The notes: generated by a model from the letters alone, not told the origin. Positions 1-7,605 are shown, counted from the stretch's first letter. The stretch: 7,605 nt of DNA from a virus (IMGVR_UViG_2693429676_000010:1-7605), one strand, 5' to 3'. Translations and numbers: made by a program.

Positions 1-73
1 CAAAGTGATCTACTATTCCGCGCAGCTATTTAGGAGTAGAGCGATAACGTGTTTTAATTCTGTCTCGTTCATT

Positions 74-229
74 TTACTCACCTGAATGTCTTCCCAACCA
101 ACGACGTGCGCCAGCTTCGGTTTTAAACGTTTTGCTTTTGGTATACGTCATGGCGGTGAATGTGCCGTCTTGATTGGGAAACACGCCACATACCAGAGAT
201 TCGTTGTTGCCAAGATCGATAGTATTCAT
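74..229 (-). CDS. small hypothetical prophage protein (51 aa from ATG at 229; the ORF extends to 292 only with a TTG start). Possibly YdaF-like, unverified
   Basis: ORF track 74..292 minus. Internal ATG at 227-229 is preceded by a GGGG Shine-Dalgarno-like run about 6 nt upstream, whereas the TTG at 292 has no recognisable RBS. Sits downstream of a terminator and a candidate promoter. No recognisable domain. Confidence 0.4.
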   Translation of the reverse strand: MNTIDLGNNESLVCGVFPNQDGTFTAMTYTKSKTFKTEAGARRWLGRHSGE

Positions 230-409
230 GTTGACCCCATTTCCCCTTAACGCCGGGTGGCGGAACGTTTTATCTACTGCGCTTTGTATCAATCAACAAC
301 TGCCGTCATGTTCGTATGCCTCAGGCTGGCTACTTAGCCCTGTTCAGTGACTGGATAACTCGAGGTATTGTCCTGCCGTTCTCTGGTGGGGCGTTGTTTG
401 GATATGCTT

Positions 410-438
410 ATTAAACACAATTTGTTTTCTTGTGTCAA
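410..438 (-). promoter_or_regulatory. candidate sigma70 promoter for the small leftward ORF (-35 TTGACA, 17-nt spacer, -10 TTTAAT on minus strand)
   Basis: Plus-strand TGTCAA at 433-438 is a perfect TTGACA on the minus strand; plus-strand ATTAAA at 410-415 is TTTAAT on the minus strand; the spacer 416-432 is 17 nt. Confidence 0.35.
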
Positions 439-479
439 CACGCAATGTGTTTTATGGTGAGTGTCATATGATGATGCTA

Positions 480-504
480 CAAAAAAGCCCGCTGATAGCG
501 GGCT
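480..504 (-). terminator. rho-independent terminator of the leftward repressor transcript
   Basis: Perfect 8-bp stem AGCCCGCT (486-493) / AGCGGGCT (497-504) with a 3-nt loop. The plus-strand A6 run at 481-486 is a U-tract directly after the stem on the minus strand. Located 30 bp past the repressor stop at 535. Confidence 0.65.
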
Positions 505-534
505 GATTGGCATATTACTGTGATAGCAAGATCA

Positions 535-954
535 TTATTCCGGTGGGGGATTATCTTTAATCCTGCCTCTCAAATATTTTTCTACATACTCATCGATTTC
601 TTTTAGCCGGACTTCAAATAGCTCAATCATTCGTTGTTGTTCTGAGCCCGGTAGCTGGTTAAACAACTCAAGAAGTTTTCGTTGGGATTCATTTAACCAC
701 AATTCAGAAGATTCCTGTTCTCCAAAGAGGAGCTCAGGAGGAGATATGCCAAGTGCCTTTCCCAATACGACAGCGTCATGTACTCCAACATTTCTGCTGC
801 CCGCCTCATAGTTACCTATACGCGATTGCGTCCATCCGCAGATTTCAGCAAGTTTTCCTTGAGATAAACCAAGCTTCTGCCTGCGCTCTTTAAGACGCAT
901 TGCAATTTTGTCATTGAGCCTACTAGCGGCAATTTTTTCGTTTTCTTTTTCCAT
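535..954 (-). CDS. prophage repressor, HTH XRE family (cI/RacR-type), 139 aa, no S24 peptidase domain
   Basis: ORF 535..954 minus. Helix-turn-helix signature LGLSQGKLAEICGWTQSRIGNYEAG in the N-terminal half; short helical C-terminal region; AAGGA RBS upstream on the minus strand; divergent from a Cro-like gene; followed by a terminator. Confidence 0.85.
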   Translation of the reverse strand: MEKENEKIAASRLNDKIAMRLKERRQKLGLSQGKLAEICGWTQSRIGNYEAGSRNVGVHDAVVLGKALGISPPELLFGEQESSELWLNESQRKLLELFNQLPGSEQQRMIELFEVRLKEIDEYVEKYLRGRIKDNPPPE

Positions 955-1050
955 TGCATCCTTGTATCACGAATCGTGATTTACATAAAACACAAAACAG
1001 CTTGGCTATATAACACAAGGTGTGTTTAAAATTGTCATCGGAGGTTTTCA
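955..1050. promoter_or_regulatory. divergent promoter/operator region between repressor and cro-like gene
   Basis: 96-bp AT-rich intergenic region containing a perfect 7-bp-arm palindrome ATCACGA-A-TCGTGAT (966-980) and an inverted repeat ACACA-AGG-TGTGT (1013-1025); TTTACA at 980-985 and TTGGCT at 1002-1007 are possible -35 elements. Exact promoter assignment not resolved. Confidence 0.5.
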
Positions 1051-1293
1051 ATGAACAAAATTTCAACATATCGAAAACAGCTTGGGCTGTCTCAAAGACA
1101 ACTTGCTGTTCAGTTAGGGTGGATACAAAGCCGACTGGCAAATTACGAAGCAAATTTTCGTACCCCTGGACTAGAGGAGTGCAGAAAAATTGTTTCTACC
1201 CTTAATCGGCTTGGCGCTCATTGTGGACTTGACGATGTATTCCCCCCAGACGGTAAGCATAGCGAAAACAGCATAGGAGCGGTTGATTCATGA
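1051..1293 (+). CDS. Cro-like HTH (XRE) transcriptional regulator, 80 aa
   Basis: ORF 1051..1293 plus. GGAGG RBS 6 nt upstream of the ATG; HTH signature LGLSQRQLAVQLGWIQSRLANYE; divergent from the repressor; its stop overlaps the next start (ATGA at 1290-1293). Confidence 0.8.
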   Translation: MNKISTYRKQLGLSQRQLAVQLGWIQSRLANYEANFRTPGLEECRKIVSTLNRLGAHCGLDDVFPPDGKHSENSIGAVDS

Positions 1294-1559
1294 AAATCAG
1301 GCATGAGCACATCGAATCAGTGTTGTTAGCCCTGGCAGCCGAAAAAGGGCAGGCGTGGGTCGCTAACGCAATTACTGAAGAATATCTGCGCCAGGGGGGC
1401 GGCGAATTGCCCCTTGTACCAGGCAAGGACTGGAACAATCAGCAGAATATCTATCACCGTTGGTTGAAAGGTGAAACGAAAGCGCAAAGGGAAAAAATTC
1501 AGAAACTGATCCCTGCGGTTCTGGCAATTCTTCCGCGNCGCTTGGCTCAGTGCGAATAA
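1290..1559 (+). CDS. ydaT: CII-like regulator (YdaT-type), copy 1, truncated: genuine homology ends at the N at 1538 and the last 7 codons are junction-derived
   Basis: The N-terminal 82 aa are near-identical to the 1994..2415 copy. From recall, resembles Rac prophage YdaT. The sequence after the N at 1538 is antisense of a RacR-like gene, so the stop at 1557-1559 is not the native one. Confidence 0.6.
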   Translation: MKIRHEHIESVLLALAAEKGQAWVANAITEEYLRQGGGELPLVPGKDWNNQQNIYHRWLKGETKAQREKIQKLIPAVLAILPXRLAQCE

Positions 1560-1706
1560 TCTTTTCCCCGCCGGCTGTGTTTCATCTCTTTCCCATTGAG
1601 AAATTGTTACGTGAGCCACTTTGACCAGCTTACCTAATGCGGCCTGAGACAGTTTTAATTTTTTACGCCTATGTAAGAGGCGAGCACCGAAGGTTTCGTT
1701 TTTCAT
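1539..1706 (-). pseudogene. racR: RacR-like HTH repressor, 5' fragment only (first ~56 codons), truncated at the N at 1538
   Basis: The minus ORF starts at ATG 1706 and reads MKNETFGARLLHRRKKLKLSQAALGKLVKVAHVTISQWERDETQ (HTH). Past the N it continues only as antisense of ydaT copy 1. Divergent from the ydaS-like gene, as in Rac. Symbol by recalled synteny. Confidence 0.55.
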
Positions 1707-1782
1707 ATTAGGGAATTCTAATTTTTCTTGACTTAGGTTTCTCTACGATCTAGTTTCCTTAGGAAAATCTAAGGAGCTCGAT
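1707..1782. promoter_or_regulatory. divergent regulatory region between racR-like and ydaS-like genes
   Basis: Minus-strand TAGAAT (plus ATTCTA 1715-1720) lies 8 nt upstream of the racR-like ATG with no SD, suggesting a leaderless transcript. TTGACT at 1728-1733. CTTAGG repeats at 1732-1737 and 1758-1763, CTAAGG at 1769-1774, and an inverted repeat TTTCC-TTA-GGAAA at 1754-1766. Confidence 0.4.
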
Positions 1783-2010
1783 ATGTTGAAAATTGATGCT
1801 ATAGCGTTTTTTGGCAGCAAAACAAAGCTTGCCAATGCCGCAGGAGTTAGGCTGGCAAGCATTGCTGCATGGGGGGAACTGGTTCCTGAAGGTCGCGCGA
1901 TGCGCCTGCAAGAGGCATCTGGCGGGGAACTTCAGTACGACCCCAAAGTTTATGACGAATATCGTAAGGCAAAACGACCTTGGAAGGTGATTCATGAAAA
2001 TCAGGCATGA
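1783..2010 (+). CDS. ydaS: YdaS-like Cro-type regulator, 75 aa
   Basis: ORF 1783..2010 plus. Strong RBS TAAGGAG 6 nt upstream; divergent from the racR-like gene; its 3' end overlaps the ydaT copy-2 start by 17 nt. Symbol from recalled Rac gene order. Confidence 0.75.
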   Translation: MLKIDAIAFFGSKTKLANAAGVRLASIAAWGELVPEGRAMRLQEASGGELQYDPKVYDEYRKAKRPWKVIHENQA

Positions 2011-2415
2011 GCACATCGAATCAGTGCTGTTGCCCTGGCAGCCGAAAAAGGGCAGGCGTGGGTCGCTAACGCAATTACTGAAGAATATCTGCGCCAGGGG
2101 GGCGGCGAATTGCCCCTTGTACCAGGCAAGGACTGGAACAATCAGCAGAATATCTATCACCGTTGGTTGAAAGGTGAAACGAAAGCGCAAAGGGAAAAAA
2201 TTCAGAAACTGATCCCTGCGGTTCTGGCAATTCTTCCGCGCGAGCTGCGTCACCGACTCTGCATCTTCGATACCCTGGAACGCCGTGCATTACTGGCGGC
2301 GCAGGAAGCGTTGAGTACGGCAATTGATGCGCATGATGATGCAGTCCAGGCCGTTTACCGGAAAGCGCATTTCAGCGGCGGCGGGTCTTCCGACGATTCT
2401 GTCATTGTTCATTAA
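1994..2415 (+). pseudogene. ydaT: CII-like regulator (YdaT-type), copy 2, about 140 codons, interrupted by a 1-nt deletion near codon 14
   Basis: Near-identical to copy 1, but GTTAGCC in copy 1 is GTTGCC here (around 2030), shifting frame from the ATG at 1994 into a stop at about 2168-2170. The ORF track recovers the remainder as 2110..2415 in another frame. Confidence 0.6.
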
Positions 2416-2478
2416 GCAAAAGTTTCCATGCTGTTTGTGCTTATTCTAAGCAACCGGGCAGCATCATACGGGGCAATT

Positions 2479-3627
2479 ATGGCCGCATTACCATACATGC
2501 AACTGTACATAGCTGATTACCTGGCTGACACCATGCATTTGTCAGCAGAGGAGCACGGCGCGTATTTGTTGCTGATGTTCAATTACTGGCAAACAGGAAA
2601 GCCAATACCCAAAAACAGGTTGGCAAAAATTGCCCGTCTGACTAACGAGCGATGGGTTGATGTTGAACCATCCTTGCGGGAGTTTTTTTGTGATAACGGC
2701 GACGAATGGATGCATCTTCGGATTGAGGAAGATCTGGCATCTGTCAGAGAAAAATTAACCAAAAAATCAGCCGCAGGAAAAGCATCTGTTCAGGCCAGAA
2801 GAAGCAGAAAGGAAGCAGATGTTCAAACAAAACAAGAGAGAAATTTAACAGGTGTTCAAACAGATGTTGGAGTGATGTTCGAACATGATGCCAACACAAA
2901 GGCAACTAATAAAGATACAGATAAAGATCTAAAAACAGATCTAACCCATCCCAAACCCTTCCCTTCCGGAAGGGAGTTTCGGGATTTTGTGGCTGGAGTG
3001 CTTGAGGGGAGATTATCTGGCGGTACTGCAGCGGAATTTTGTAATTCTGCGGTGGTTGCGTTGCAGGCTGCTGGCCTGGATGTCTGTCGTGAGTATCCGG
3101 TGCCAGAGCGTGGTGACGGTTGCGGAGGGCGGATTGATATCGTCGTGACTGACAGGAACGGTGTCCGGTGTGGGAGCGAGCTTGACCGAAATTCTCCGCG
3201 ACAGAAATCACTGCTCAAAATCGGTGCTGTTGAAACCGGGATATGTGTCTTGCGGCGCAGTGATATCGCAAGGCACACCGAGCAGGGAATTCTGGTTATC
3301 GGTGGGGCTGTTCGCCAGAAAAAATTTGACCCGTTGTCAGTTGATCTGCCCGACTGGTTGCCAGAAACACTCTGGCATGAGTGGGTCCAGTTCAGGCAGG
3401 CATTGCGAAAACCGATTCGAACGGAGCAGGGCGCTAACGGGGCGATACGGGAACTGGAAAAATTCCGTCAGCAGGGTTTTACACCTGAGCAGGTGATTCG
3501 ACACAGCATCGCCAATGAATACCAGGGCCTGTTCGCGCCGAAAGGTGTTCGGCCTGAGACGTTGCTCCGACAGGTTAACACCGTCTCGTTGCCGGACAGT
3601 GCGATCCCGCCAGGCTTCAGGGGGTAA
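2479..3627 (+). CDS. replication initiator / replisome organiser, N-terminal DUF1376 (YdaU-like), 382 aa from ATG 2479 (the ORF extends to 2428)
   Basis: ORF 2428..3627 plus. The conserved DUF1376-like N-terminus PYMQLYIADYLADTMHLSAEEHGAY sits 5 residues after the ATG at 2479, so I prefer that start. Low-complexity linker encoded by repeats; C-terminal domain conserved in the other copies; stop overlaps the SD of the DnaC-like gene. Confidence 0.8.
   Translation: MAALPYMQLYIADYLADTMHLSAEEHGAYLLLMFNYWQTGKPIPKNRLAKIARLTNERWVDVEPSLREFFCDNGDEWMHLRIEEDLASVREKLTKKSAAGKASVQARRSRKEADVQTKQERNLTGVQTDVGVMFEHDANTKATNKDTDKDLKTDLTHPKPFPSGREFRDFVAGVLEGRLSGGTAAEFCNSAVVALQAAGLDVCREYPVPERGDGCGGRIDIVVTDRNGVRCGSELDRNSPRQKSLLKIGAVETGICVLRRSDIARHTEQGILVIGGAVRQKKFDPLSVDLPDWLPETLWHEWVQFRQALRKPIRTEQGANGAIRELEKFRQQGFTPEQVIRHSIANEYQGLFAPKGVRPETLLRQVNTVSLPDSAIPPGFRG
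2787..2946. other. candidate phage origin of replication embedded in the initiator gene (iteron-like repeats plus AT-rich tract)
   Basis: TGTTCA at 2787-2792; TGTTCAAACA at 2820-2829 and 2853-2862; palindromic TGTTCGAACA at 2876-2885 (spacings 33, 33, 23 bp). Followed by a roughly 75% AT tract at 2906-2945 with two AGATCT/GATC sites (2925-2930, 2937-2942). Analogous to lambda ori inside gene O. Confidence 0.45.
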
Positions 3628-3633
3628 CAGACC

Positions 3634-4380
3634 ATGAAAAATATTGCGACAGGAGGCGTTCTGGAGCGTATCCGCAGACTGACCCCACCACATGTAACCG
3701 CCCCATTCAGAACGGTTGCGGAGTGGCGCGAGTGGCAACTTGCTGAAGGCCAGAAACGTTGCGAGGAGATCAACCGCCTGAATCGTCAGTTGCGGGTGGA
3801 AAAAATCCTGAACCGCTCCGGCATCCAGCCGTTGCACCGGAAGTGTTCGTTTGCGAATTACCGGGCGCAGAACGACGGTCAGCGACATGCACTGAGTCAG
3901 GCGAAATCCATAGCTGACGAACTGATGACAGGCTGTACGAATTTTGTGTTCAGCGGTAAGCCCGGCACCGGAAAAAATCATCTTGCAGACGCGATTGGCA
4001 ACCGGCTGATGGCGAAGGGGCGTAGCGTGATTATCGTCACCGTGTCCGATGTCATGAGCGTGTTGCATGAGAGCTACGACAACGGCAAATCCGGTGAAAA
4101 ATTTTTACAGGAGCTTTGTGGTGTTGACCTGCTGGTCCTGGATGAAATTGGCATGCAGCGGGATACGAAAAACGAGCAGGTGGTACTGAACCAGATTGTT
4201 GATCGCCGGACGGCATCGTTACGCGGTGTGGGGATGCTGACAAATATTAACCATGCAGCGATGAATACACTTCTCGGCGAGCGGGTGATGGATCGCATGG
4301 TCATGAACGGCGGGCGCTGGGTGAATTTTAACTGGGAGAGCTGGCGTCCGAATGTTAGCCATTCGAGGGTTGTTAAGTAG
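3634..4380 (+). CDS. ydaV: DnaC-like helicase loader (AAA+ ATPase, YdaV-type), copy A, 248 aa
   Basis: Walker A GKPGTGKN at 3955-3978, as in E. coli DnaC; Walker B DLLVLDEIG; C-terminal LGERVMDRM motif; GGGG SD overlapping the upstream stop, suggesting translational coupling. Symbol by recalled Rac synteny. Confidence 0.9.
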   Translation: MKNIATGGVLERIRRLTPPHVTAPFRTVAEWREWQLAEGQKRCEEINRLNRQLRVEKILNRSGIQPLHRKCSFANYRAQNDGQRHALSQAKSIADELMTGCTNFVFSGKPGTGKNHLADAIGNRLMAKGRSVIIVTVSDVMSVLHESYDNGKSGEKFLQELCGVDLLVLDEIGMQRDTKNEQVVLNQIVDRRTASLRGVGMLTNINHAAMNTLLGERVMDRMVMNGGRWVNFNWESWRPNVSHSRVVK

Positions 4381-4394
4381 TTTCAGGAGGATTT

Positions 4395-4620
4395 ATGGCG
4401 AAACCTTTTACTCCCGAACAGCGGGAAGAACTGAAGACGCGAATTGTGGAACTCGTGCATCAGGACGGTCGGGTCACGATTCGGCAGTTGTCAGATGAAA
4501 CAGGTATCAGTCGTGCGTCTGTCGGTCGCTTATGCATAGAACTGGTCGCAAGTGGTGATGTATATAATTCTGGCTACGGGGTATTTCCCTCTGAACAGGC
4601 TCGCAAGGACTGGCAAAGCG
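4395..4620 (+). CDS. small putative DNA-binding protein (HTH-like, YdaW-like), 5' portion; interrupted by the N-run at 4621
   Basis: AGGAGG RBS 6 nt upstream of ATG 4395; HTH-like stretch VTIRQLSDETGISRASVGRLCIELVASGDV. The ORF-track continuation through the Ns into (RG)n is an artefact of reading through the gap. Confidence 0.6.
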
Positions 4621-4637
4621 NNNNNNNNNNNNNNNNN
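4621..4637. other. run of 17 N (assembly gap or masked bases)
   Basis: Directly visible. Flanking sequences are not contiguous in homology. Confidence 0.95.
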
Positions 4638-4638
4638 A

Positions 4639-4680
4639 GAGGAAGAGGAAGAGGAAGAGGAAGAGGAAGAGGAAGAGGAA
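4639..4680. repeat. hexanucleotide microsatellite (GAGGAA)x7 immediately after the N-run
   Basis: Seven perfect tandem GAGGAA units at 4639-4680. Not in frame with any credible gene. Confidence 0.9.
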
Positions 4681-4694
4681 GATCTAAATACTGA

Positions 4695-5030
4695 TCTCCC
4701 CCTCGCCAAAAACGAGCGTCTAAAAAATTCGAGCCGGAGGCTATTGAGCTGCCCGATTGGTTGCCGGAAACACTCTGGCATGAGTGGGTCCGGTTCAGAC
4801 AGGCATTGCGAAAACCGATTCGAACGGAGCAGGGCGCTAACGGGGCGATACGGGAACTGGAAAAATTCCGTCAGCAGGGTTTTACACCTGAGCAGGTGAT
4901 TCGACACAGCATCGCCAATGAATACCAGGGCCTGTTCGCGCCGAAAGGTGTTCGGCCTGAGACGTTGCTCCGACAGGTTAACACCGTCTCGTTGCCGGAC
5001 AGTGCGATCCCGCCAGGCTTCAGGGGGTAA
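4695..5030 (+). CDS. 3' fragment of a second, diverged initiator gene (C-terminal domain only), copy B
   Basis: In-frame stop at 4692-4694, then 111 codons. From LPDWLPETLWHEW onward it matches the copy-A C-terminus almost exactly (one Q-to-R change); upstream of about 4745 the sequence is unrelated to copy A. No upstream initiator body is present in the window. Confidence 0.5.
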   Translation, partial: SPPRQKRASKKFEPEAIELPDWLPETLWHEWVRFRQALRKPIRTEQGANGAIRELEKFRQQGFTPEQVIRHSIANEYQGLFAPKGVRPETLLRQVNTVSLPDSAIPPGFRG

Positions 5031-5036
5031 CGGACC

Positions 5037-5783
5037 ATGAAAAATATTGCGACAGGCGGCGTTCTGGAACGCATCCGCCGACTGACCCCGCCACATGTAA
5101 CCGCCCCATTCAGAACGGTAGCGGAGTGGCGCGAGTGGCAACTTGCTGAAGGCCAGAAACGTAGCGAGGAGATCAACCGCCTGAATCGCCAGTTGCGGGT
5201 GGAAAAAATTCTGAATCGCTCAGGCATCCAGCCGTTGCACCGTAAATGCTCGTTTGCGAATTACCAGGTGCAGAACGACGGCCAGCGATACGCGTTAAGC
5301 CAGGCGAAATCCATCGCCGATGAACTGATGACCGGGTGTACAAATTTTGCGTTCAGCGGAAAACTTGGTACCGGGAAGAATCACTTAGCGGCAGCTATCG
5401 GGAATCGCCTGCTGAAAGACGGTCAGACAGTGATTGTGGTTACCGTGGCTGATGTTATGAGCGCCCTGCACGCCAGCTATGACGACGGGCAGTCAGGCGA
5501 AAAATTTTTGCGGGAGCTGTGCGAAGTGGATCTGCTGGTTCTTGATGAAATTGGCATTCAGCGCGAGACGAAAAACGAGCAGGTGGTGCTGCACCAGATT
5601 GTTGATCGCCGGACAGCGTCGATGCGCAGCGTGGGGATGCTGACAAACCTGAACTATGAGGTGATGAAAACATTGCTCGGCGAGCGGGTGATGGATCGCA
5701 TGGTCATGAACGGCGGGCGCTGGGTGAATTTTAACTGGGAGAGCTGGCGTCCGAATGTTAGCCATTCGAGGGTTGTTAAGTAG
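5037..5783 (+). CDS. DnaC-like helicase loader, copy B (diverged paralog/allele), 248 aa
   Basis: Same length and architecture as copy A. About 30 of 248 residues differ by manual alignment; the nucleotide differences I checked in the first 66 nt are all synonymous. Walker A reads GKLGTGKN (P to L). Confidence 0.85.
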   Translation: MKNIATGGVLERIRRLTPPHVTAPFRTVAEWREWQLAEGQKRSEEINRLNRQLRVEKILNRSGIQPLHRKCSFANYQVQNDGQRYALSQAKSIADELMTGCTNFAFSGKLGTGKNHLAAAIGNRLLKDGQTVIVVTVADVMSALHASYDDGQSGEKFLRELCEVDLLVLDEIGIQRETKNEQVVLHQIVDRRTASMRSVGMLTNLNYEVMKTLLGERVMDRMVMNGGRWVNFNWESWRPNVSHSRVVK

Positions 5784-5797
5784 TTTCAGGAGGATTT

Positions 5798-5995
5798 ATG
5801 GCGAAACCTTTTACTCCCGAACAGCGGGAAGAACTGAAGACGCGAATTGTGGAACTCGTGCATCAGGACGGTCGGGTCACGATTCGGCAGTTGTCAGATG
5901 AAACAGGTATCAGTCGTGCGTCTGTCGGTCGCTTATGCATAGAACTGGTCGCAAGTGGTGATGTATATAATTCTGGCTACGGGGTATTTCCCTCT
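5798..5995 (+). CDS. YdaW-like small HTH gene, 5' portion, truncated at the N at 5996
   Basis: Identical to the start of the 4395 copy, with the same AGGAGG RBS; homology ends at the N. Confidence 0.55.
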
Positions 5996-5996
5996 N

Positions 5997-6095
5997 CTGT
6001 TCGCGCCGAAAGGTGTTCGGCCTGAGACGTTGCTCCGACAGGTTAACACCGTCTCGTTGCCGGACAGTGCGATCCCGCCAGGCTTCAGGGGGTAA
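5997..6095 (+). CDS. 3' tail (last ~32 codons) of the initiator gene, copy C, beginning at the N junction
   Basis: Matches 3529-3627 of copy A, ending in the same TAA and SD context. Confidence 0.45.
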   Translation: MFAPKGVRPETLLRQVNTVSLPDSAIPPGFRG

Positions 6096-6101
6096 CAGAC
6101 C

Positions 6102-6848
6102 ATGAAAAATATTGCGACAGGAGGCGTTCTGGAGCGTATCCGCAGACTGACCCCACCACATGTAACCGCCCCATTCAGAACGGTTGCGGAGTGGCGCGAG
6201 TGGCAACTTGCTGAAGGCCAGAAACGTTGCGAGGAGATCAACCGCCTGAATCGTCAGTTGCGGGTGGAAAAAATCCTGAACCGCTCCGGCATCCAGCCGT
6301 TGCACCGGAAGTGTTCGTTTGCGAATTACCGGGCGCAGAACGACGGTCAGCGACATGCACTGAGTCAGGCGAAATCCATAGCTGACGAACTGATGACAGG
6401 CTGTACGAATTTTGTGTTCAGCGGTAAGCCCGGCACCGGAAAAAATCATCTTGCAGACGCGATTGGCAACCGGCTGATGGCGAAGGGGCGTAGCGTGATT
6501 ATCGTCACCGTGTCCGATGTCATGAGCGTGTTGCATGAGAGCTACGACAACGGCAAATCCGGTGAAAAATTTTTACAGGAGCTTTGTGGTGTTGACCTGC
6601 TGGTCCTGGATGAAATTGGCATGCAGCGGGATACGAAAAACGAGCAGGTGGTACTGAACCAGATTGTTGATCGCCGGACGGCATCGTTACGCGGTGTGGG
6701 GATGCTGACAAATATTAACCATGCAGCGATGAATACACTTCTCGGCGAGCGGGTGATGGATCGCATGGTCATGAACGGCGGGCGCTGGGTGAATTTTAAC
6801 TGGGAGAGCTGGCGTCCGAATGTTAGCCATTCGAGGGTTGTTAAGTAG
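6102..6848 (+). CDS. ydaV: DnaC-like helicase loader, copy C (protein identical to copy A)
   Basis: The ORF-track translation is identical to 3634..4380; the whole unit is offset by 2468 bp from copy A. Confidence 0.85.
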   Translation: MKNIATGGVLERIRRLTPPHVTAPFRTVAEWREWQLAEGQKRCEEINRLNRQLRVEKILNRSGIQPLHRKCSFANYRAQNDGQRHALSQAKSIADELMTGCTNFVFSGKPGTGKNHLADAIGNRLMAKGRSVIIVTVSDVMSVLHESYDNGKSGEKFLQELCGVDLLVLDEIGMQRDTKNEQVVLNQIVDRRTASLRGVGMLTNINHAAMNTLLGERVMDRMVMNGGRWVNFNWESWRPNVSHSRVVK

Positions 6849-6862
6849 TTTCAGGAGGATTT

Positions 6863-7231
6863 ATGGCGAAACCTTTTACTCCCGAACAGCGGGAAGAACT
6901 GAAGACGCGAATTGTGGAACTCGTGCATCAGGACGGTCGGGTCACGATTCGGCAGTTGTCAGATGAAACAGGTATCAGTCGTGCGTCTGTCGGTCGCTTA
7001 TGCATAGAACTGGTCGCAAGTGGTGATGTATATAATTCTGGCTACGGCTTATTCCCGTCTGAACAGGCTCGCAAGGACTGGCAAAGCGCCCGCAAAAAAC
7101 TCTCGAGAGTAAAGGTGAGGAAACCGGTTGTTGTTGATCCGGACCTTATCTGGTCATTACCTGACGGAGAAATACGCCGCTACGACAGGCGCCTGAATAT
7201 AATCTGTCGCGAGTGCCGGAAGAGCGAAGCT
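6863..7231 (+). CDS. YdaW-like small HTH gene, longest copy (123 codons before the N at 7232; native 3' end not determinable)
   Basis: Same start and RBS as the other copies, with a GVFP to GLFP variant near 7045. The continuation past the N is junction-derived. Confidence 0.6.
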
Positions 7232-7233
7232 NT

Positions 7234-7605
7234 ATGGCGAAACCTTTTACTCCCGAACAGCGGGAAGAACTGAAGACGCGAATTGTGGAACTCGTGCATC
7301 AGGACGGTCGGGTCACGATTCGGCAGTTGTCAGATGAAACAGGTATCAGTCGTGCGTCTGTCGGTCGCTTATGCATGGAACTGGTCGCAAGTGGTGATGT
7401 ATATAATTCTGGCTACGGGGTATTTCCCTCTGAACAGGCTCATAAAGACTGGCAAAACGCCCGCAAAAAGCTATCGAGGGTAAAGGTGAAGAAACCGGTT
7501 GTGGTTGATCCTGACCTTATCTGGTCATTACCAGACGGAGAAATACGCCGCTACGACAGGCGCCTGAATATAATCTGTCGCGAGTGCCGGAAGAGCGAAG
7601 CTATG
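7234..7605 (+). CDS. YdaW-like small HTH gene, further variant copy starting right after the N; open to the window end
   Basis: ATG at 7234-7236, no stop through 7605. Several substitutions relative to the 6863 copy (for example I to M at 7378, R to H and S to N around 7441-7456). Preceded by coding sequence, not by the usual RBS, so the placement is likely an assembly join. Confidence 0.45.
   Translation, partial: MAKPFTPEQREELKTRIVELVHQDGRVTIRQLSDETGISRASVGRLCMELVASGDVYNSGYGVFPSEQAHKDWQNARKKLSRVKVKKPVVVDPDLIWSLPDGEIRRYDRRLNIICRECRKSEAM

Follow-up and report, generated by a model that had tools for sequence, protein, structure and literature searches.

Results

Gene content and organization of the window

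The window, as we call the whole stretch of DNA that was analysed (7,605 nt), contains Ns at exactly 1538, 4621-4637 (17 N), 5996 and 7232; no ambiguity codes other than these were found in its 7,605 nt. The Ns cut it into five pieces: S1 (1-1537), S2 (1539-4620), S3 (4638-5995), S4 (5997-7231) and S5 (7233-7605). Two prophage loci of the complete chromosome CP061367.1, designated X (L018) and Y (L024), served as references for allele painting. The features, with their assignment to X or Y, are the following:

1-30: left scaffold end, formed by the final 30 nt of an IS insertion of 1,153 bp that is absent from VL40
535-954, minus strand: HTH repressor of prophage X, 139 aa (Pfam HTH_3, E=4.6e-13)
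1051-1293, plus strand: Cro-like HTH regulator of prophage X, 80 aa (Pfam HTH_3); gene order matches complete genomes
1290-1537, plus strand: ydaT, 5' part only, with the intact allele of X (Pfam YdaT_toxin; piece 100% X)
1538: single-N junction; the true overlap of S1 and S2 is 254 nt
1539-2031: left part of S2, from prophage Y (100% identical to Y through 2093)
1539-1706, minus strand: truncated Y repressor, in the left part of S2
1783-2010: P22-Cro-like gene of Y, in the left part of S2 (P22_Cro, E=3e-13)
2094-4380, plus strand: rest of S2, from prophage X; informative sites all X except 3528
start of the 2094-4380 stretch, plus strand: remainder of ydaT, X (S2)
2428/2479-3627, plus strand: DUF1376 YdaU initiator, X (DUF1376, 87.7 bits)
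3634-4380, plus strand: DnaC-like loader, allele A (IstB_IS21, 66.1 bits; NCBIfam PRK12377, 503.8 bits at a cut-off of 389)
4395-4620, plus strand: ydaW/DUF977 fragment whose tail is an X/Y mosaic, with Y alleles at 4538 and 4603-4618 on either side of X alleles at 4580-4589
4621-4637: 17-N scaffold gap (N run)
4638-5030, plus strand: 3' part of the Y-type initiator (99.7% identical to Y; phrog_2509, replication initiation protein)
4638-4682: GAGGAA repeat within the Y-type initiator (TRF, 7.5 copies)
4761-5030, plus strand: ORF of the shared C-terminal initiator tail (S3)
5037-5783, plus strand: DnaC-like loader, allele B, prophage Y (88% to A; all informative sites Y)
5798-5995, plus strand: ydaW fragment that carries Y alleles up to a final run of four X alleles (5983-5992), after which it breaks off
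5996: single-N junction; S4 goes back by 1,064 nt within the module
5997-6095, plus strand: second copy of the initiator tail (S4)
6102-6848, plus strand: second copy of loader A (copy C, in S4; 248/248 to A)
6863-7231, plus strand: ydaW/DUF977, Y-type allele (DUF977, 96.1 bits)
7232: single-N junction between S4 and S5
7233-7605, plus strand: ydaW/DUF977, true X allele (373/373 to Shigella sonnei 53G and to X of CP061367.1)

The genes that recur across the pieces are the initiator tail, the DnaC-like loader and DUF977/ydaW, with Pfam scores of 66-68 bits for IstB_IS21 and 96-101 bits for DUF977 across the copies. The units are colinear and all in the same orientation, and the pieces flanking each single-N junction overlap in content. 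In ungapped pairwise alignments, S2 3529-4620 and S4 5997-7088 agree at 1088/1092 positions (99.6%), S2 3319-4592 and S3 4722-5995 at 1152/1274 (90.4%), S3 and S4 at 89.3% over 1064 nt, and S4 6862-7231 and S5 7233-7602 at 95.7%. An additional duplicate spans the N at 1538 (1284-1537 versus 1988-2240, 97-100% identity, offset 703/704). Repeats this long and this identical cannot have arisen by chance.

The N positions and these alignments confirm the threefold recurrence of an initiator-tail/loader/ydaW unit with N-marked junctions that a preliminary description of the window had reported. The offset of exactly 2468 bp given there between units A and C is reproduced by the S2/S4 alignment, and their DnaC-like proteins are indeed identical (248/248); the loader of unit B, described as about 12% diverged, shares 218 of 248 residues (88%) with A, and the fourth ydaW variant noted from 7234 is a DUF977/ydaW reading frame with an ATG at that position. 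It also holds that every break in colinearity lies at an N; the boundary of unit A on its left side (about 3319-3342), however, is not an assembly break. Two unrelated initiator genes start to share their C-terminal domain there, and the edge is a biological module boundary.

The module is single-copy in complete genomes

In the best places among 5,426 complete E. coli genomes, 92% of the 7,605-nt query falls within 4,033 bp of chromosome. This collapse was seen for E. coli VL40 and for FDAARGOS_944, where S1, S2 (1988-4620), S4 and S5 all map to one locus annotated, in single copies, as HTH, HTH, ydaT, YdaU, ATP-binding protein and DUF977. In the window, as in the annotated genomes, a DUF1376 initiator, a DnaC-like AAA+ loader and DUF977 follow each other in order, downstream of repressor, cro and ydaT. 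The window collapses onto a single locus in S. sonnei 53G (HE616528.1) and CP061367.1 as well. No array of the module was found in the 5,426 complete E. coli genomes, nor in the complete chromosomes encoding exactly the loader A or loader B protein.

CP061367.1 encodes both exact loader proteins, at 3.04 Mb and 4.14 Mb; its X prophage (allele A) and Y prophage (allele B, with the exact loader B protein) are oppositely oriented and separated by about 1.1 Mb. FDAARGOS_944 also carries both module types, about 715 kb apart. The X prophage is present in S. sonnei 53G, and the X repressor gene is found in VL40, FDAARGOS_944 and S. sonnei 53G. In all complete chromosomes retrieved with the exact loader A protein, the loader is followed by an IS-truncated DUF977 of 138 aa, the non-hybrid form. 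In VL40, loader A is naturally followed by an S4-like ydaW with 4 mismatches.

Two allele sets account for the window

Painting assigned S1 (1537/1537) and S5 (373/373) entirely to X; window 1-1537 is 100% identical to L018 5071-6607. S2 is Y to 2031: it has the alleles of Y at 2027 and, after 2031 at the start of ydaT, the deletion of 1 bp found in Y. Thereafter it is X, except for Y alleles at 3528, 4538 and 4603-4618. The Y allele at 3528 stands isolated inside the X stretch. S2 itself is chimeric and combines the Y immunity region (to 2031) with the replication genes of X (from 2094 on). In S3, 124 informative sites carry the Y allele before the last 4 turn to X; in S4, 110 X sites precede 16 Y sites, and the Y-type ydaW joins the X loader across a 265-bp stretch in which X and Y do not differ. 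No aligned site carried a base private to the window: every difference was an X or a Y allele, with the unit count of the GAGGAA repeat (at least 7.5 versus 6 copies) as the sole exception. Because only two allele sets appear and no base is private, two modules suffice for the window.

The mosaic switches fall in stretches where X and Y are identical, the shortest switch interval being 13 nt (in S2), and three piece ends adjoin an X/Y difference to the base. S1 ends at the position equivalent to 2240, one base short of a variant (2241: C in X, T in Y). S4 starts one base past the site equivalent to 3528, the only variant within an otherwise X/Y-identical stretch of 232 bp. S5 and the window end exactly at the IS600 insertion point of prophage X, the right scaffold end; one base further, X departs from Y into sequence that matches the IS600 annotated in VL40 at 99.8% identity. 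The left scaffold end also lies at an IS copy, the window beginning 30 nt inside it. L018 3948-5100 can be recognized as an insertion because VL40 lacks that stretch; it encodes a 343-aa DDE_3 transposase, and from its size and transposase we take it to be IS630-type.

Overlapping pieces are not fully consistent with each other: the site equivalent to 5941/7377 separates S3 from S5, and 4 sites separate S2 from S4. The four ydaW "variants" are two real alleles (X in S5, Y-type in S4) and, in the tails of S2 and of S3, two X/Y mosaics. In S3, a 10-bp deletion puts the initiator tail in a different reading frame from the Glu-repeat; compared with the intact gene of FDAARGOS_944 (262 aa), the Y-type initiator differs by 10 bp. 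Both prophages look defective, Y by frameshifts in ydaT and in the initiator, X by IS600 in ydaW.

Contig collections and other drafts

The allele of the S2 tail, followed through a unique 43-mer, had no match in viral, genome or metagenome contig collections and no exact match in the 5,426 complete E. coli genomes (best 95%), which makes it an unprecedented sequence; the window itself is accordingly absent from the three contig collections. The sequences of 4538-4620 and 5941-5995 occurred in no genome examined. The junction 5980-6025, with any base allowed at the N, had no match in genome, metagenome or viral contigs, where stored Ns may escape such a pattern. The first 49 nt of the window matched only L006 and L013 in the contig search. 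S4, with loader A and the Y-type ydaW, is 100% identical to the N-free contigs L003 and L006, and since L003 runs on into Y-type downstream genes, this join could be real in some strains.

The same assembly defect is found in further public drafts of the Rac-like module. Draft L009 has single Ns flanked by redundant pieces of 91-99% identity and an orphan X-type ydaW tail with the same end base as the window, and in L020 (CXCR01000135.1) fragments of DUF977 and IstB are duplicated alongside runs of N.

Discussion

The threefold array is not a real feature. We consider it highly probable (about 0.93) that the window is an artefactual serialization of overlapping, partly mixed pieces of two related defective Rac-like prophages, which in genomes of the S. 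sonnei type are some megabase distant from each other, with no tandem array behind it. The preliminary description had already favoured an assembler tangle of related prophages over a tandem duplication, and the collapse onto single loci, the presence of both loader alleles in one chromosome and the breaks at Ns uphold this. Its further proposal, that the source carries at least 2-3 related modules whose diversity is real, stands as far as two modules are concerned; a third is unneeded given only two allele sets, and part of the diversity is artefactual. Assuming three or four distinct prophages is unnecessary for the same reason.

The data show that the window collapses to single loci, derives from two loci without private bases, switches between them in mosaic fashion and breaks at variant sites and IS edges; the type of assembler or scaffolder, and a source of one genome, not a mixture, we infer. 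The window would be a short-read scaffold, most likely from a draft genome of the S. sonnei type, and its source genome would have two defective Rac-like lambdoid prophages, X and Y, with a single replication module each (repressor, cro, ydaT, initiator, DnaC-like loader, DUF977/ydaW). X and Y are identical over 60-265 bp in places, next to stretches more than 15% different, as in the loader gene. The diverged parts would give separate contigs (loader A twice, loader B once), and the identical stretches would defeat phasing, such that contigs cross there between the prophages and isolated variant sites are filled with either the X or the Y allele. Contigs would halt where reads of the two copies conflict. 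The scaffolder would then chain overlapping contigs head to tail via read pairs in shared sequence, placing a single N where the estimated gap is zero or negative and 17 N at the low-complexity GAGGAA repeat. Two single-copy loci could in this way yield an apparent 3-4-fold tandem array. A plain de Bruijn path error is insufficient as the sole mechanism, as S2 switches across only 13 identical bases; because of such switches, we assume an additional consensus, greedy-extension or gap-filling step.

Colinear units in the same orientation would fit a source genome in which the initiator-tail/loader/ydaW unit was truly duplicated or amplified in tandem and the Ns are only local sequencing failures. 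A continuous sequenced junction would mark such an event, but every junction here is N, and neither the 5,426 complete E. coli genomes nor the complete chromosomes with an exact loader protein have an array. The copies moreover lack private mutations, being X/Y mosaics of loci 1.1 Mb apart, their starts and stops coincide with X/Y variant sites, and loader A would have to precede two different ydaW alleles (S2 versus S4). We regard a true array as next to impossible. The alleles could also stem from different cells (a mixed culture, a contamination or a two-strain metagenome) with one module each, as allelic mixtures yield identical graph tangles; the scaffold would remain an artefact. However, the single chromosome CP061367.1 has both modules and accounts for every base without private differences, FDAARGOS_944 has both types too, and S1 and S5 match S. 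sonnei 53G at 100% identity, IS edges included, which renders a mixed origin very improbable.

A further reading accepts the scaffold artefact and takes some X/Y joins (S4, possibly S2) as real, namely as reciprocal hybrid prophages formed by homologous recombination with an inversion of about 1.1 Mb. The opposite orientation of X and Y in CP061367.1 would permit this, the N-free contig L003 links the left part of X to a Y-type ydaW and Y downstream genes, and S3, with loader B, terminates in X alleles as a reciprocal product would. Yet the retrieved complete chromosomes with exact loader A all carry the truncated, non-hybrid DUF977, the disagreements between S3 and S5 and between S2 and S4 would demand four or more modules in a purely biological reading, and isolated single-site switches such as 3528 resemble consensus mixing. 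On balance real joins in this scaffold are unlikely, and it is doubtful that the source strain carries such hybrids (loader A with Y-type ydaW, loader B with X-type ydaW), be it by homologous recombination or gene conversion. If it did, its chromosome would be inverted over about 1.1 Mb relative to genomes of the S. sonnei 53G type.

These findings matter mainly for quality control. Taken at face value, this record would give wrong gene counts and wrong prophage boundaries, as well as spurious "expansions" of the replication genes and spurious new "alleles" of ydaW: loader A is counted twice, and at most two of the four DUF977 starts are real. The window also offers a recipe for recognizing such artefacts without reads, by single Ns between overlapping content, breaks on variant sites of paralogues and the lack of private mutations upon painting against a complete relative. 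The underlying biology, two defective Rac-like prophages sharing recombinogenic stretches in Shigella and E. coli, is already well known.

Among known systems, the Rac prophage region of E. coli K-12 (ydaS/dicC-ydaT-ydaU-ydaV-ydaW) has the same gene order and families, i.e. HTH repressor and cro, YdaT, DUF1376 YdaU, DnaC-like YdaV and DUF977, and Escherichia phage Rac (MN652886.1) is 88.6% identical to the window at the nucleotide level. No functional difference separates the two; the window differs in repeating the module through assembly. When E. coli or Shigella genomes with multiple lambdoid prophages are assembled from short reads, IS elements and prophage repeats interrupt the contigs, and the boundaries between the modules of lambdoid mosaicism become branch points of the assembly graph. 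The usual result is fragmentation or collapse, whereas here the scaffolder serialized the alternatives into a false array. The window is also close to the false scaffold duplications described as "duplicated overlapping/contained contigs" (Kelley & Salzberg 2010, PMC2864568) and to "heterotype false duplications" (Ko et al. 2022, PMC9516828), for which adjacent duplicates parted by gaps (Ns) are a listed criterion (PMC9516828). Adjacent N-separated pieces, collapse onto a single locus in complete assemblies and absence of private mutations are all found here. As in those cases (PMC2864568, PMC9516828), near-identical polymorphic copies of one locus went into separate contigs that became neighbours on one scaffold with gaps and form one locus in better assemblies. 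Unlike them, the "haplotypes" of the window are paralogous prophage modules of a haploid bacterium rather than diploid alleles, and its contigs are chimeric mosaics as well.

Collapse of the window onto single-copy loci

The Ns of the window, found solely at 1538, 4621-4637, 5996 and 7232, divide it into five pieces (S1-S5). The preliminary description had ascribed a threefold recurrence of an initiator-tail/DnaC-like loader/ydaW unit (units A, B and C, located in S2, S3 and S4) to related prophages mis-joined by the assembler, and our analysis supports this reading. In a search of 5,426 complete E. coli genomes, VL40 and FDAARGOS_944 were the two top-ranking records, in which 92% of the query (7,605 nt) falls within a chromosomal stretch of just 4,033 bp. 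Local BLAST stacked S1, positions 1988-4620 of S2, S4 and S5 on one single-copy locus, which is annotated in both genomes in the order HTH, HTH, ydaT, YdaU, ATP-binding protein and DUF977 with one copy each. S3 belongs to a second type of module, some 715 kb away from the first in FDAARGOS_944. The array itself is absent from these finished genomes.

Ungapped alignments bore out the colinearity of the three units. S2 and S4 are 99.6% identical over 1,092 nt and reproduce the offset of exactly 2468 given for units A and C, while S2 and S3 share 90.4% identity over 1,274 nt and S4 and S5 95.7% over 370 nt. As described before, units A and C encode the same DnaC-like protein (248/248), and the stated divergence of about 12% for unit B corresponds to 88% identity with both copies. 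Beyond the range 3342-7605 considered previously, 1284-1537 and 1988-2240 are 97-100% identical over about 254 nt spanning the first N, and constitute a further false duplicate.

Two prophages of CP061367.1 account for all alleles

The exact loader-A protein occurs in several complete chromosomes, among them HE616528.1 of Shigella sonnei 53G. CP061367.1 encodes the exact loader B plus loader A, with loader A at about 3.04 Mb and loader B at about 4.14 Mb. We used its two Rac-like prophage loci, X (L018, loader A) and Y (L024, loader B), as references to assign the bases of the window.

Pieces of the window and their assignment to X or Y
1-1537, S1: X, 1537/1537
1539-4620, S2: Y on the left, X on the right
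1539-2093, left part of S2: 100% Y, including the 1-bp ydaT deletion of Y at 2031/2032
2094 onwards, right part of S2: X at all informative sites except for Y alleles at 3528, 4538 and 4603-4618
2479-3627, DUF1376/YdaU initiator: X-type
4580-4589, tail of S2: back to X
4638-5995, S3: Y at 124 sites, then X at the last four sites (5983-5992)
5997-7231, S4: X at 110 sites (loader A), a 265-bp stretch identical in X and Y, then Y at all 16 ydaW sites
7233-7605, S5: X, 373/373

None of the aligned window bases is private with respect to X and Y, the sole difference being the number of GAGGAA units in a repeat. Two modules are thus sufficient, and of the at least two to three modules proposed earlier, two stand whereas more than two are not needed. 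The four ydaW variants are the X allele (S5), the Y allele (S4) and two X/Y mosaics at the ends of S2 and S3. The mosaic ending S2 had no match in three large contig collections and was not found in complete E. coli genomes, where the best match reached 95%. Accordingly, the allelic diversity taken as real signal holds for the X and Y alleles but not for the chimeric tails of S2 and S3.

Position of the breaks and weighing of alternatives

S1 ends one base short of the X/Y difference at 2241, S4 starts one base past the sole X/Y difference within a 232-bp identical stretch, and S5, and with it the window, ends one base short of the point where X and Y diverge. From the stretch lengths, we calculate a chance of 1/232 x 1/123 x 1/73 for these three exact abutments, which are very unlikely to be coincidental. 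S2 and S3 each end 11 nt short of the next variant site, and S3 starts within a hexamer repeat adjoining the 17-N gap. Both ends of the scaffold lie at IS copies. On the left, the first 30 nt of the window belong to a 1,153-bp DDE_3 insertion (L018 3948-5100), presumably of the IS630 type and lacking in VL40; on the right, the window edge (7605) coincides with an IS600 in the ydaW of prophage X (L018 9134-10396), which matches the IS600 annotated in VL40 at 99.8% identity. Breaks at X/Y variant sites, a repeat and IS edges fit a halt of contig extension followed by scaffolding. Extension would stop where reads of the two prophages disagree, scaffolding would then join contigs via common sequence, and a single N would denote an estimated gap length of zero or less.

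Alternatively, the join in S4 from loader A to a Y-type ydaW could be a real recombinant of some lineage. It is 100% identical to the N-free contigs L003 and L006, and L003 runs on into Y-type downstream genes; since X and Y face opposite ways, such a recombinant with an accompanying inversion might exist. However, all complete chromosomes retrieved with loader A continue with an IS-truncated DUF977 of 138 aa. Moreover, S2 conflicts with S4, and S3 with S5, at sites where every difference is an X or a Y allele, so that no fewer than four modules would be required to explain the window by biology alone. The alleles might also stem from mixed strains, but this origin is unnecessary. We conclude that the threefold array is not a real genomic feature, and that the biology beneath it, two defective prophages with Rac-like replication modules, is already known. 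In CP061367.1 the two modules are oppositely oriented, separated by about 1.1 Mb and identical over stretches as long as 265 bp, and could plausibly serve as substrate for inverting a large part of the chromosome.

Gene content and lesions of the Y module

The gene identities proposed earlier were confirmed for initiator, loader and DUF977. The loader is IstB/DnaC-like (NCBIfam PRK12377, 503.8 bits versus a cut-off of 389), the ydaW-like genes are DUF977, and upstream of the initiator lie HTH repressor and cro genes and ydaT. The X repressor occupies 535-954 and the Y cro gene 1783-2010, and QueH follows downstream of Y. Between its DUF1376 N-domain and the common C-terminal tail, X-type YdaU (382 aa) has an in-frame insertion of some 105 residues (aa 172-276, window 2992-3306) that matches phrog_1347, of unknown function. 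In VL40 and FDAARGOS_944, PGAP calls the same gene as two partial pseudogene pieces; the ORF in the window is continuous (399 aa). Two initiator types with unrelated N-terminal parts, DUF1376/phrog_6451 and phrog_2509, have an almost identical C-terminal domain in common (about 100 aa; 3319-3627, 4722-5030), directly upstream of the loader gene. Its onset is a lambdoid module boundary, and the domain may mediate contact with the loader. In the Walker A region (aa 109-116, gene 5037-5783), loader B has GKLGTGKN instead of the GKPGTGKN of loader A, a Pro-to-Leu change. Loader B in this exact form is widespread, with 155 blocks of the collection listing it.

The 5' part of ydaT appears on both sides of the N at 1538, first as the intact X allele (1284-1537) and then as the Y allele (1988-2240), in which a 1-bp deletion causes a frameshift. 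A 39-mer with this deletion (2027-2032) is found exactly in eight IMG/VR contigs, and the Y locus of CP061367.1 has the deletion as well, so it is a real allele rather than an error and ydaT is a pseudogene in the Y prophage. The Y-type initiator (4683-4760; L011 6020-6060) has a 10-bp deletion compared to the intact 262-aa gene of FDAARGOS_944, which places the C-terminal domain out of frame, and thus looks inactivated. Its linker contains the GAGGAA (Glu-Glu) repeat (4638-4682), which the 17-N gap truncates and of which no fewer than 7.5 copies are present; with six units in L024 and two to seven among strains, the repeat behaves like a VNTR. In one IMG/VR contig (L004 7417-8682), the N-terminal part of this initiator is disrupted by a roughly 1.27-kb element that matches the IS copies flanking X and Y at 99.9% identity.

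Similar assemblies

IMG/VR UViG 2671180603_000017 (L009) contains three single Ns (1044, 3595, 9606) with redundant, 91-99% identical pieces at each, and its terminal piece, an orphan ydaW tail of X type, stops at the very base where the window stops. CXCR01000135.1 (L020, 3922-7019) shows N runs, two DUF977 genes and extra IstB fragments near the same loader gene. Given these similar N-separated redundant pieces in other public drafts of the prophage region, the defect is systematic for this locus. The same situation has been described as adjacent 'duplicated overlapping contigs' on scaffolds (PMC2864568).
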